DNA of 64,000 nt from Dehalococcoidia bacterium. GTDB taxonomy: Bacteria > Chloroflexota > Dehalococcoidia > SM23-28-2 > RBG-16-64-32. Position numbers and translations under genes: made by a program. The number at the start of each line of letters is the position of its first letter. The first letter of the stretch is position 1. Positions 5,089 through 14,535 of the stretch are shown here, in pieces. The stretch lies in assembly GCA_030649945.1 (NCBI GenBank), contig JAUSFE010000104.1:6004-70003 (forward strand). The letters run 5' to 3'. Below the pieces are notes generated by a model. It worked only from the letters and a program-made list of their open reading frames with translations. It did not search any database and was not told where the DNA came from.

Positions 5089-5116
5089 GTAGGGGTCGTT
5101 CGCGAACGATCCCTAC
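5089..5116. repeat. 28-bp palindrome GTAGGGGTCGTTCGCGAACGATCCCTAC (family B), intergenic pyrB-pyrC
   Basis: Near-perfect inverted repeat; a perfect copy of the same family lies inside the pyrC CDS at 6204-6231. Confidence 0.7.
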
Positions 5117-5135
5117 AACCGCTTGCCTTCCCACG

Positions 5136-6482
5136 ATGTCCAGGAGGTCGCGGATGACCAGCCTAGCCATTCGCGGCGGGCGGGTGATCGACCCGGCGAA
5201 CGGCGTTGACGCCGTCGCCGACGTGGTCATTGCCGACGGGCGCGTCGCGGCCGTCGGGCCGGACGCCGGCAAGGACGCCGCCGAGACGATCGACGCCCGC
5301 GGGCTCGTCGTCTGCCCGGGGTTCGTCGATATCCACGCGCACCTGCGAGAGCCAGGCTTCGAGCACAAGGAGACGATTGCGACAGGCACGCTGGCGGCGG
5401 CGCGCGGCGGCTTCACCACCGTCTGCGCCATGCCCAACACCGAGCCGCCAATCGACAACGCGGGCGCGGTCGAGTTCGTCCTGCGCACCACGCAGGCCCA
5501 GGGCGCCGTCCGCGTCCTGCCTATCGCCTGCGTCACGAAGGGCCGCGCCGGGCGGGAATTGGCCGAGCTGGCGGAGCTGGCGCAGGCGGGCGCGATCGCG
5601 TTCAGCGACGACGGTGCGCCTGTGGCCGACGCCCACCTGATGCGGCGGGCGCTGGAGTACGCCGGCATGCTCGGCGTGCCCGTCATCGACCACTGCGAAG
5701 ACCCCTCGCTGGCCGCGGGCGGCGTCATGCACGAAGGCTGGGTGTCCACCCGCCTGGGCCTGCGCGGCGTCCCCGCCTCGGCCGAAGAGGCGATGGTGGC
5801 GCGGGACATCGCTCTGGCCGAGCAGACGGGGTCGCACGTCCACATCGCGCACGTCAGCACGGCGGGCGCTGTGGACCTCATCCGCAATGCCAAGGCGCGT
5901 CGCGTCCGCGTCACGGCCGAGGTGACGCCGCATCACCTGGCGCTGACGCACGAAGCCGTTCTCACCGGCCCCGGAGAGACGCCGGGCGGACTGGCCTACG
6001 ACACCAACGCCAAGGTCAACCCGCCCCTGCGCACGCCGGCCGATACGGATGCCTGCCTCGCCGGGCTGCTGGACGGCACGATCGACTGCATCGCCACGGA
6101 CCACGCGCCGCACGCCGTCCAGGACAAGCTGTGCGAGTTCGACGCCGCGGCCTTCGGCATCAGCGGCCTGGAGACGGCGCTGGGGCTCCTGCTGACAACC
6201 CGCGTAGGGGCGGTTCGCGAACCGCCCCTACAGCGTCTGATCGAGGCGCTCACCATCGCCCCCGCACGGACGCTCGGCCTCGACGCCCGCATCGCGGGGC
6301 TGGGCACGCTGTCGCCGGGCGCACAGGGGGACGTCACGATCATCGACCCCGAGGCGGAGTGGGTTGTCGAGCCGGAGACGTTCGCCAGCAAGGGCAAGAA
6401 CACGCCGCTGGCGGGACGCAGGCTGACGGGGCGCGTGGTGGCGACGGTGTACGGGGGACGGGTGGTGTTCGATGACCGCTAA
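5136..6482 (+). CDS. pyrC: Dihydroorotase
   Basis: DIHAHLREPG...; DHAPH; amidohydrolase fold. Confidence 0.9.
   Translation: MSRRSRMTSLAIRGGRVIDPANGVDAVADVVIADGRVAAVGPDAGKDAAETIDARGLVVCPGFVDIHAHLREPGFEHKETIATGTLAAARGGFTTVCAMPNTEPPIDNAGAVEFVLRTTQAQGAVRVLPIACVTKGRAGRELAELAELAQAGAIAFSDDGAPVADAHLMRRALEYAGMLGVPVIDHCEDPSLAAGGVMHEGWVSTRLGLRGVPASAEEAMVARDIALAEQTGSHVHIAHVSTAGAVDLIRNAKARRVRVTAEVTPHHLALTHEAVLTGPGETPGGLAYDTNAKVNPPLRTPADTDACLAGLLDGTIDCIATDHAPHAVQDKLCEFDAAAFGISGLETALGLLLTTRVGAVREPPLQRLIEALTIAPARTLGLDARIAGLGTLSPGAQGDVTIIDPEAEWVVEPETFASKGKNTPLAGRRLTGRVVATVYGGRVVFDDR
6204..6231. repeat. 28-bp perfect palindrome GTAGGGGCGGTTCGCGAACCGCCCCTAC (family B) inserted in-frame within pyrC
   Basis: Perfect inverted repeat encoding ...RVGAVREPPLQ... 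inside dihydroorotase. Confidence 0.7.
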
Positions 6483-13300: not shown

Positions 13301-13678
13301 GACCAGACGAAGCCCGAGGCGATGCCGGCGGTGCGCAGCCTGGCCGCGGCCGGCTACAAGATCTACGCCACGGAGGGCACCGCCGCCATGGTCCGCGCCC
13401 TGGGGCTGGCGGTGGAGCGCGTACCCAAGCGCATTGAGGAGGGCCACCCGAACGTGGTGGACGTCATCCAGGACGGCCTCGTGGACGCCGTCATCAACAC
13501 GCCGGAGGGCCGCGTCACGGCCACCCTGCGCGACGGCTTCGACATCCGCCGCGCCGCCGCCGAAAAGCGCATCCCCTGTTTCACGTCCATCGATACCGCG
13601 GCCGCCGCCGTATCCGCGCTCGTGGCCGGCGATCCGCACTTCACGATTCAGCCGCTGCGGGACTACCTGGCGCCGTGA
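10331..13678 (+). CDS. carB: Carbamoyl-phosphate synthase large subunit
   Basis: Duplicated ATP-grasp halves ([21 protein letters not shown] ... [18 protein letters not shown]), MGS-like C-terminus; TTG start. Confidence 0.9.
12907..12928. repeat. 22-bp perfect palindrome GGACAGACC-TTCA-GGTCTGTCC (family A) inside an in-frame ~25-aa insertion in carB
   Basis: The insertion [28 protein letters not shown] lies between the conserved VQY... and [15 protein letters not shown] blocks. Confidence 0.7.
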
Positions 13679-14535
13679 TACGGCTCGAGCGCGCCACCGT
13701 CGTCTCCCAGGAGCAGGTCTACGAGAACACCTACCTGATGTGGCTCTCCTGCCCGCCCGTCGCGAAGGGCGCCTCGCCCGGGCGCTTCCTGATGGTCCGC
13801 TGCTCTGACGGCAACGACCCGCTGTTGCCACGCCCGATGAGCTTCCACCGCTTCCGCCGCCAACCTTCACCCGAAGGTCAGGCTCTCAGCCGCCAACCTT
13901 CACCGGGGGGTCAGGCTCTCAGCCTGACAGGGGAGCGGGGTGGGGCACAGCCCGCAACCCAGTTCGCCATCCTCTACGACGTCCGCGGCCGCGGTACCGC
14001 CTGGCTCTCCACCCGCAAGTCCGGCGACGCCATCCGCGTCTTCGGGCCACTGGGCCGGGGCTACAGCCTGAGCCCGGCGGCGCAGAACGTCCTGCTCGTC
14101 GCCGGCGGCCTGGGCGTGGCCGCCGTTGTGGCGCTCGCGGACGAGGCCATCGCCGCCGGCAAGGCCGTGACCCTGTTGCAGGGCGCCCGCACCGTGGCGC
14201 GCCTCTTCCCCGCCCACCTCCTGCCCACCGCGGTCGAGGCTGTCTCCGCCACAGACGACGGCAGCGAGGGTCACCACGGTTATGTCACGGAGATCCTGCC
14301 CGGCTACCTCCCGTGGGCGGACCAGGTCTTCGCCTGCGGCCCCGGCCCGATGTTCGCGGCAATGGCGAACACGATGCGACAGGCGCGCTCCCGCAAGCCC
14401 GTACAGGCGCTGCTGGAAGAGCATATGGGCTGTGGTACAGGCGTCTGCTACGGCTGCGCTGTGTTCACGCGCAAAGGCGTGCGCCTGGTCTGCAGGGACG
14501 GCCCGCGCTTCGAGCTGCGGGAGGTGTTCACGTAG
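13675..14535 (+). CDS. pyrK: Dihydroorotate dehydrogenase electron-transfer subunit (FAD/[2Fe-2S])
   Basis: FNR-like fold with a C-terminal [11 protein letters not shown] cluster motif; follows carB. Confidence 0.8.
13862..13928. repeat. Tandem ~30-bp duplication ending in palindrome GTCAGGCT-CTC-AGCCTGAC (family A), inserted in-frame in pyrK
   Basis: caaccttcacc(c/g)g(aa/gg)ggtcaggctctcagcc x2 encodes [22 protein letters not shown]. Confidence 0.65.

Follow-up and report, generated by a model that had tools for sequence, protein, structure and literature searches.

Short palindromic repeats that carry a terminal GTAG tetranucleotide form a super-family of repetitive extragenic palindromes (REPs). 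They measure 20-40 bp, have short loops and G:T pairs in their stems, and are associated with genes for REP-associated tyrosine transposases (RAYT or RayT), whose ends they flank or overlap (Di Nocera, De Gregorio & Rocco 2013, BMC Genomics 14:522; PMC3733652). GTAG REPs usually lie outside genes, although some complete units occur within genes that encode known proteins, frequently in linker or loop regions; they were reported in Chloroflexi, Cyanobacteria and Planctomycetes, and some of their families are species-specific, others common to several species (PMC3733652). The same paper cites Rickettsia palindromic elements (RPEs) as palindromic repeats lying in frame in genes for functional proteins. 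In the literature on REP doublets (REPINs), REPIN-RAYT systems are said to be specific to lineages and to pass mostly by vertical inheritance. Here we analyzed six palindromes, assigned to two families (A and B), in a 64-kb stretch of contig JAUSFE010000104.1 from a Dehalococcoidia bacterium (assembly GCA_030649945.1), hereafter called the window, which contains a pyrimidine operon of Bacillus type. We consider it probable that these palindromes are REP-class repeats of the GTAG-tagged type that were copied into permissive loops of housekeeping genes.

Six palindromes in and around the pyrimidine operon

The operon lies on the + strand and includes pyrB (4025-5059), pyrC (about 5154-6482), carA (6472-7605), carB (10331-13678) and pyrK (13675-14535). 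CarB and PyrK are 100% identical to MDO8616261.1 and MDO8616262.1, from a Dehalococcoidia metagenome-assembled genome. The original prediction, made from the sequence alone, had located family B between pyrB and pyrC and within pyrC, and family A in carA, carB, pyrK and an intergenic region; all six palindromes were found where it had placed them, and the reading frame was intact in all four coding copies, as it had stated.

Both copies of family B, which is 28 bp long, lie on the + strand with GTAG at the head and CTAC at the tail. Copy 1 (5089-5116) is extragenic, in the 94-nt pyrB-pyrC spacer (5060-5153), and copy 2 (6204-6231) is a perfect palindrome in pyrC that encodes VGAVREPPL(Q) and has the sequence of the cross-phylum consensus described below. 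Copy 1 differs from copy 2 by two compensatory base-pair changes and one G:T wobble, which forms on the + strand only, so that the description of the palindromes as perfect does not hold for all of them.

Family A has the core CAGGCT-loop-AGCCTG and four copies on the + strand, three of them intragenic. The carA copy (6988-7023) has 17-bp arms and a TC loop, and lies in the linker that joins the N-terminal domain to the glutaminase domain. The carB hairpin (12907-12928; GGACAGACC-TTCA-GGTCTGTCC) has arms of 9-10 bp, is preceded by GTAC and is contained in a 45-bp insertion (15 residues; 12902-12946). In pyrK, a 75-bp insertion (13858-13932) consists of a 42-bp element, whose hairpin (13910-13928) has 8-bp arms and a CTC loop, plus a 33-bp tandem duplication. 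The extragenic copy (36261-36284) begins with a GTAG tag (36261-36264), followed by a hairpin with 8-bp arms (36264-36284; GGACAGGC-CTTCA-GCCTGTCC), about 40 nt past the stop codon of a + strand gene. The carA arms are longer than the predicted 8-11 bp, and the pyrK loop is CTC rather than the predicted TTCA. The tandem duplication in pyrK, predicted at about 30 bp, was recovered as a 33-bp unit (13856-13924; 2.1 copies, 91% matches).

These palindromes are members of repeated families, as had been proposed. A degenerate pattern for family B matched twice in the window (0.00 expected from 100 shuffles), and nine perfect hairpins had stems of 9 bp or more, compared with 3.7 ± 1.5 in shuffled sequences. 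Folded as single-stranded DNA, all six hairpins were stable (-8.3 to -22.2 kcal/mol; z -2.7 to -8.3): the carA hairpin reached -22.2 kcal/mol (z -8.3), the pyrC copy -18.1 kcal/mol (z -7.3) and copy 1 of family B -10 kcal/mol. Family B at 28 bp and the family A hairpins at 19-36 bp have the size and stem-loop form of REPs. The tags of family A are mixed: the extragenic copy has GTAG and the carB copy GTAC, and the carA and pyrK copies have no tag. Outside the window, GTAG followed by GACAGGC...GCCTGTC hairpins occurs in other phyla (for example, at loci L117 and L037), and xxCAGGC...GCCTGxx hairpins are enriched in REP-rich loci (11 versus 1.3 expected), where GTAG or CTAC tags are frequent. 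From these sequence patterns we conclude that family A probably belongs to the same class, GTAG-type REPs, as family B, with an inconsistent tag.

From the work of Ogata and colleagues in 2000-2002, RPEs are said to be roughly 100-150 bp long and specific to Rickettsia. The original prediction had likened the palindromes to RPEs, and the likeness is one of behavior: the hairpins are translated, lie in loops, and stand in frame at tolerated positions of genes for functional proteins. Membership in the RPE family does not follow, since they are far too short (hairpins of 19-36 bp; inserts of 21-45 bp, or 75 bp with the duplication), unrelated in sequence and hosted by a Dehalococcoidia bacterium; in addition, family B has a link to RayT genes, which RPEs are not known to have. 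The further suggestion that no equivalent was known in this kind of genome is wrong in view of the report of intragenic GTAG REPs in several phyla and of GTAG REPs in Chloroflexi (PMC3733652), whose super-family hallmark, a GTAG head and a CTAC tail, is shared by family B. The palindromes are thus best classed as new members of the known GTAG-type REP class residing in genes, RPE-like in the way they work.

Filled and empty sites in close relatives

We compared the window with three syntenic loci of relatives, L121 (CarB 88% identical), L122 (85%) and L123 (84%), and with individual loci of others. The alignments revealed presence or absence at each site, in agreement with the proposal that the in-frame additions to CarA, CarB, PyrC and PyrK are lineage-specific. 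The prediction had named relatives that carry the same peptide segments without palindromic DNA as grounds for abandoning it; instead, the closest relatives lacked the segments. The elements are lineage-specific and of differing ages, which refutes the idea that they are conserved protein features.

In carA, the hairpin was absent from L121, L122, L124 and L127, and the window has 9 extra residues (6979-7005) compared with L121 and L122, or 9-10 compared with close relatives in general. In L123 the hairpin is shorter and imperfect, with arms of 8 bp (GTCAGGCT-TC-AGCCCGAC), and the metagenome locus L125 has the same stem with an inverted loop (GA). The window CarA linker is only 2 residues longer than that of E. 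coli, so the argument that canonical orthologues lack the extra peptide fails for CarA, and the carA insertion is best regarded as real relative to close relatives only. CarB is 26 residues longer than its E. coli counterpart at the insert. Other long palindromes occur in the CarA linker among 80 metagenome relatives, including TCCTCTCCCTTGAAGGGAGAGGA in L136 and L139 and one with a 15-bp stem in L171.

The carB insert was absent from L121, L122, L123 and L214. It falls between positions aligned to E. coli CarB residues 833 and 834, where the window has a 26-residue segment, and the loop from VIMR to VYVLEVNPR comprises 28 residues in the window versus 13 in the closest relatives; counted by eye, the loop is between about 6 and about 40 residues long in the relatives that were examined. 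The site aligns to the turn preceding the strand with the EVNPR motif and, judging from the E. coli structure, is probably surface-exposed. Structural mapping, which the prediction had suggested, places the CarB insert at a turn, the CarA insert in an inter-domain linker and the PyrK insert in a loop between strands.

The pyrK insert adds 25 residues relative to relatives and about 33 relative to the solved structure. Its 33-bp duplication is unique to the window, although the insert also occurs on two distant contigs: L214 (PyrK 82% identical) has a single-copy 42-bp insert without the duplication, and L216 has the same hairpin together with a separate 21-bp duplication. Among 112 relatives, the loop was short in 87 and contained insertions in 25. 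In an AlphaFold2 model of the window PyrK (56 sequences; mean predicted local distance difference test score, pLDDT, 74), residues 61-70, 71-80 and 81-90 averaged pLDDT values of 67, 43 and 40 and were flanked by strands at 55-62 and 95-102; the insert is thus modeled as a low-confidence excursion between two strands. About 20 nt, covering the hairpin and sequence upstream of it, are shared by the window pyrK insert and the L123 carA insert (TCAYCGGGG(G)GTCAGGCT(C)TCAGCC), and local copying from carA to pyrK, whose hairpins have a stem in common (GTCAGGCT/AGCCTGAC), may have occurred. CAGGCT..AGCCTG hairpins with the opposite loop orientation were found in PyrK of L215, whose loop reads GCCAGGCT-AA-AGCCTGGC, and in CarA of L125. 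These resemblances between genes and genomes speak for family A inserts having arisen independently.

The pyrB-pyrC spacer is likewise lineage-specific, because the pyrB stop and pyrC start overlap by 4 nt (GTGA / ATGA) in L122 and L123; in the window it also contains a fresh AGGAGG ribosome-binding site. An identical copy of the pyrC palindrome was present in L121 and none in L122 or L123, and L127 has at the same site a decayed GTAG palindrome with a different centre (GTAGGGGCGCAAGGCCATACGCCTCTAC). Around copy 2, a 90-bp tract (6153-6242, + strand) is 100% identical to L121, corresponding to 30 consecutive identical codons against a background codon identity of 0.54; no other identical run exceeds 9 codons in pyrC or 16 in carB. 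No RNA structure extends beyond the pyrC hairpin (z -1.25). With no structure to explain the identity, the tract probably reflects short recombination or gene conversion that moved the filled allele between lineages.

An indel scan of all orthologous open reading frames (ORFs) common to the window and L121-L123 (about 23 kb) showed that most of the window's in-frame gains of 4 or more residues are located in pyr genes. Other additions are also capable of forming hairpins: a second small hairpin in carA (7036-7051, + strand; TCCGCC-CTCC-GGCGGA), in a 7-residue window-specific insertion (7030-7050), and CCTGCCGGTAGGCAGG in pyrK of L123. In an acetyltransferase gene, a 7-residue in-frame insertion contains a non-palindromic 25-mer, CCTTCGNNNGGCTCAGGGCAGGCTC (8484-8508, + strand), which recurs with at most 3 substitutions in frame in L122 pyrB (3029-3053) and also on a Terriglobia contig (L070:7330), and which represents a third repeat family in coding sequence. 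No target-site duplications were found at the filled and empty sites compared.

Five of the six copies lie within 8.8 kb (P ~0.008 under uniform placement, in a post hoc test), from which local proliferation in, or targeting of, the pyr operon had been suggested; both are unproven. The same CarA, CarB and PyrK loops are hypervariable in length and contain other, REP-like repeats in many relatives, and because these loops are hotspots there too, tolerance of the loops suffices to explain the clustering, at least as well as targeting does. Filled and empty sites in such close relatives provide rare junction-level data on the entry of REP-like hairpins, and inserts of this kind can mislead annotation, alignment, phylogeny and structure prediction of metagenome-derived genomes.

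Family B across phyla and its association with RayT genes

Scanning 185,579 species genomes with the pattern GTAGGGNNNGTTCGCGAACNNNCCCTAC yielded at least 120 loci with family B (GTAGGGGCGGTTCGCGAACCGCCCCTAC) in about 15 phylum-level groups, with unrelated flanks and for the most part outside genes. According to the sequence records, the hosts include Dehalococcoidia and other Chloroflexota, Acidobacteriota, Nitrospinota, Nitrospirota, several Desulfobacterota groups, Planctomycetota, Cyanobacteriota, Calditrichota, Omnitrophota, Kiritimatiellota, Gemmatimonadota, Latescibacterota, Bacillota, a Thiothrix and a Parabacteroides; the palindrome was also present on 10 viral contigs. Among the matches listed, 103 of 124 copies were the exact 28-mer, the variants including compensatory pair changes, and single genomes had up to 4 copies (on 3 loci). 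By a crude ORF test of these 124 copies, 55 had no open frame of at least 150 codons across them, 46 were near an ORF end and 23 were deep inside; many lie in repeat-rich spacers or at gene ends. In-frame copies in real proteins were found in a cyanobacterial CobN/Mg-chelatase, in hydantoinase B and in the inter-domain linker of a planctomycete glycosyltransferase. Nothing relevant to the family B sequence, or to the peptides it encodes, turned up in literature searches, and family A was likewise not found in the searchable literature.

Some copies are arranged in partial arrays. A one-and-a-half-copy array, GTAGGGGCGGTTCGC-T-GTAGGGGCGGTTCGCGAACCGCCCCTAC, occurs in three unrelated phyla (L061:6209, L119:1816 and L118:2697), and in L080 (about 6211-6330), at the end of a RayT ORF, four half-copies precede a full variant copy. 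Such arrangements suggest breakage or slippage at the centre of the palindrome.

A tblastn search with an E. coli RayT sequence detected a RayT-like gene in 7 of 120 palindrome-selected loci, and the matches were then checked with NCBIfam, Pfam and the PDB. The ORFs contain the HUH and Tyr motifs, at which they match both NCBIfam NF047646 ('REP-associated tyrosine transposase') and E. coli TnpA-REP (4ER8), their best match of solved structure. Their matches to NF047646 had E values of 1e-17 to 6e-19, below the 80-bit equivalog cut-off, and those to Pfam Y1_Tnp scored 19.7-21.2 bits, just under the cut-off of 23.

Six of the RayT-like genes contain the family B 28-mer in frame: L024:253-762, L030:1865-2368 (-), L059:2367-2867 (-), L080:6327-6842 (-), L109:1170-1652 (-) and L009:1-270. 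At all six loci, the internal copy is located directly after the HUH strand and encodes the peptide GGSRTAPT. Beyond the internal copy, L059 has family B about 45 nt upstream of the gene and again about 60 nt downstream; in L024, L030 and L080 the internal copy is accompanied by one just downstream. In these other genomes, family B thus flanks a RAYT gene as REPs do, and the layout is the classical REP-RAYT arrangement plus an internal copy. GTAG-headed hairpins flanking a single HUH/Y1 gene, as in L059 and L171, are a feature of REP/REPIN-RAYT systems (Nunvar 2010, PMC2817692; Bertels & Rainey 2011, PMC3116915). By contrast, no REPINs were seen in the window, and family B, unlike the lineage-specific REPIN-RAYT systems, is common to many phyla. 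The GTAG REPs of PMC3733652 flank RAYT genes or overlap their ends, whereas family B copies lie inside the RayT catalytic domain and, as a 28-mer, are invariant across many phyla. The searchable text of PMC3733652, the HuH survey PMC6006769, PMC5581495 and other papers contains no description of REP copies within RayT coding sequence. The invariance of family B across phyla and its position inside RayT genes are the less expected of our results, and both lie outside the window.

Two RayT-like genes are located directly downstream of carA in two more distant metagenome relatives (L171:6750-7349 and L176:5858-6485), and the one in L171 is flanked by inverted GTAG REPs, GGGCGGGGT...ACCCCGCCC. A local RayT as the source of the L171 CarA insert was rejected, since these flanking REPs differ from the palindrome in its CarA linker.

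We then examined the post-HUH loop in a wider set of RayT proteins. In a word-indexed search, which is biased towards the motif, GGSRTAPT occupied this loop in 75 of 120 RayT clusters. An unbiased HMMER search of 1.84 billion cluster representatives returned 28,449 RayT relatives (E <=0.001). Among the best 150 of these, the loop could be delimited in 108, of which 19 contained a family-B-like peptide, 58 another REP-type peptide and 31 none; a REP-type peptide was thus present in 77 of 108, about 70% of the sampled relatives. The other peptides are of the kind encoded by GTAG/CTAC palindromes, such as VGAGLKPAPT, VGATHASPL, VGAQFIAP...GAINRAPT and VGAYGHTPL. In the family B clade, the 28-nt hairpin is letter-identical while the surrounding RayT protein has drifted to about 55-65% identity.

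On this basis we tentatively propose, as an idea that is plausible but less than evenly probable, that a large cross-phylum RayT family routinely carries an in-frame GTAG-type REP hairpin in the post-HUH loop of its own gene. Gene and hairpin would then form a self-contained unit that, once horizontally transferred, seeds its own REP family anew, and the loops of the pyr genes would be collateral sites. Such a seeding unit would explain the cross-phylum invariance of family B. The presence of an invariant hairpin inside the RayT gene may be of more consequence than the inserts in the window, as it bears on the origin and movement of REP families.

Origin of the inserts

Under the explanation that we favor, in which REP-class repeats were copied into permissive loops, the hairpins would be non-autonomous elements connected with RayT transposases, HUH/Y1 tyrosine enzymes whose substrate is single-stranded DNA. 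Copies would be written into housekeeping genes, and only events that kept the frame at permissive places would survive: the CarA inter-domain linker, the CarB beta-hairpin turn, the PyrK beta-hairpin loop and a variable helix-loop segment of PyrC. Translated there, they would form short additional loops that are probably disordered and have no function themselves, and are presumably neutral. Later changes would include slippage duplication (33 bp in pyrK), template switching that perfects an imperfect palindrome (in carA, with arms lengthened from 8 to 17 bp), recombination of short tracts between lineages (the 90-bp pyrC patch) and decay by point mutation (L123 and L127). The insertion chemistry may have been RayT cleavage-ligation or microhomology-guided copy-choice from another copy. 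Essential enzymes of uncultured Dehalococcoidia would, on this explanation, repeatedly accept selfish hairpin DNA, revealing natural permissive sites in CarA, CarB, PyrK and dihydroorotase.

Several observations weigh against this explanation. Only one of the four family A copies has a clean GTAG tag, support for the carB insert comes from a single assembly, that of the window itself, and tblastn with RayT sequences detected no RayT gene in the window or in L121-L123. We know of no system in which RayT-driven REP transposition has been shown in vivo. The right arm of the carA hairpin overlaps ancestral P-D codons and is largely ancestral coding sequence (AAG CCC GAC in L127, TCG CCG GAC in L121), which fits microhomology-guided copying or local inverted duplication better than transposase cut-and-paste. 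The pyrC copy is more a replacement than a clean insertion, because its net gain is only 3 residues relative to Aquifex dihydroorotase and about 2 relative to typical relatives (by-eye count); a segment of similar length was replaced, rather than 28 bp being added. Together, the ancestral right arm in carA and the replacement in pyrC argue against simple cut-and-paste and fit microhomology-guided copying. The junction data suggest microhomology and template switching, either alongside a transposase reaction or in its place.

These junctions lead to the strongest alternative, which we nevertheless regard as unlikely: that no transposase is involved and that template switching made and spread the hairpins, by local inverted duplication or by microhomology-guided copying from another hairpin, the 'families' being products of copying and shared ancestral codons. 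In the quasi-palindrome (Ripley) model of template switching, an inverted repeat that was imperfect becomes perfect, the new sequence being the reverse complement of its neighbor. The increase in carA arm length from 8 bp in L123 to 17 bp in the window resembles this process, and the 17-bp arms, which reach over ancestral T-Q-R codons, would fit template-switch correction of an imperfect palindrome. In L125, the carA loop and right arm (GAAGCCTGAC; CTG AAG CCT GAC) match the ancestral Q-K-P-D codons of L127 (GAAGCCCGAC; CAG AAG CCC GAC), leaving the left arm alone as new, and the right arm of L123 carA (AGCCCGAC) equals the ancestral sequence of L127 and does not match its own left arm. Small lineage-specific insertions in these genes are for the most part hairpin-capable and unique in sequence, as at 7036-7051 in the window and at CCTGCCGGTAGGCAGG in L123 pyrK, and the arrangements of half-copy plus full copy of family B in three phyla point in the same direction. 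When a new arm is required to be the reverse complement of its neighbor, the outer carA arms and L125 carA conform but carB and pyrK do not: both arms of their hairpins are new relative to the empty sites. This, together with recurrence in other genes and genomes, argues against a purely local origin. Moreover, family B has the same letters in genomes that are very distantly related and is physically linked to RayT genes, and CCTTCGNNNGGCTCAGGGCAGGCTC, present in both the acetyltransferase gene and L122 pyrB, is non-palindromic and cannot come from local inverted duplication. The Ripley model leaves unexplained both the identical sequences in different genes and genomes and the association with RayT.

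It is very improbable that the hairpins are selected regulatory RNA or DNA structures of the pyr operon, acting in attenuation, PyrR binding, mRNA stabilization or processing, or translational pausing. In favor of such a role, the G:T wobble of copy 1 pairs on the sense strand only, the loops of all four family A copies are rich in pyrimidines on the coding strand, the copies are clustered in one operon and the 28-mer is conserved at the DNA level between the window and L121. However, every copy is missing from some close relatives with the same operon, the same family B palindrome recurs at the loci of unrelated context described above, the loop orientation is reversed in the same genes of L125 and L215, and the pyrC copy has no structure beyond its hairpin. 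Rfam, applied to the whole window at gathering thresholds, matched only a tRNA, with no PyrR element or other family, and a PyrR-binding attenuator or other described RNA family was rejected on this ground. We give almost no credence to the idea that the extra segments are ordinary conserved protein features or metagenome assembly artefacts with incidental palindromy: the carB insert occurs in this assembly only and the E. coli CarA linker is of similar length, but the segments are absent from the closest relatives, palindromes this long are not expected by chance, reading frames are intact, and the pyrC, carA and pyrK elements, for which the idea is largely refuted, recur in independent assemblies from other samples (L121, L123, L125, L214 and L216).

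Two further classes of repeat were also rejected. Miniature inverted-repeat transposable elements have the terminal inverted repeats of insertion sequences, lengths of 70-300 bp and target-site duplications, whereas the elements described here are far shorter and lack target duplications. A CRISPR-like array is incompatible with the irregular spacing of the copies.

Other features of the locus were recorded. The carA-carB interval of the window (7871-10334) contains genes for a VapC toxin and a GNAT acetyltransferase, as well as two ORFs without a family match; the same interval contains a vapB-vapC pair and an acetyltransferase gene in L122 and L123, and an acetyltransferase gene in L121. In L122, an insertion of about 600 bp with low GC content (3605-4150) interrupts the 5' end of pyrC, and about 30 bp of the pyrC start are duplicated on either side. 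Two GC-rich hairpins unrelated to families A and B, at 18456-18484 (14-bp arms; GGACGCCCCGCCGG-C-CCGGCGGGGCGTCC) and 21723-21745 (10-bp arms), are situated between genes or shortly after the end of one, and could be terminator-like or belong to another repeat. The G+C content of the window is 66%; positions 24000-31000 are lower in GC (56-60% versus about 67%), contain no ORFs with the usual third-position GC bias of the genome, and are possibly acquired DNA.

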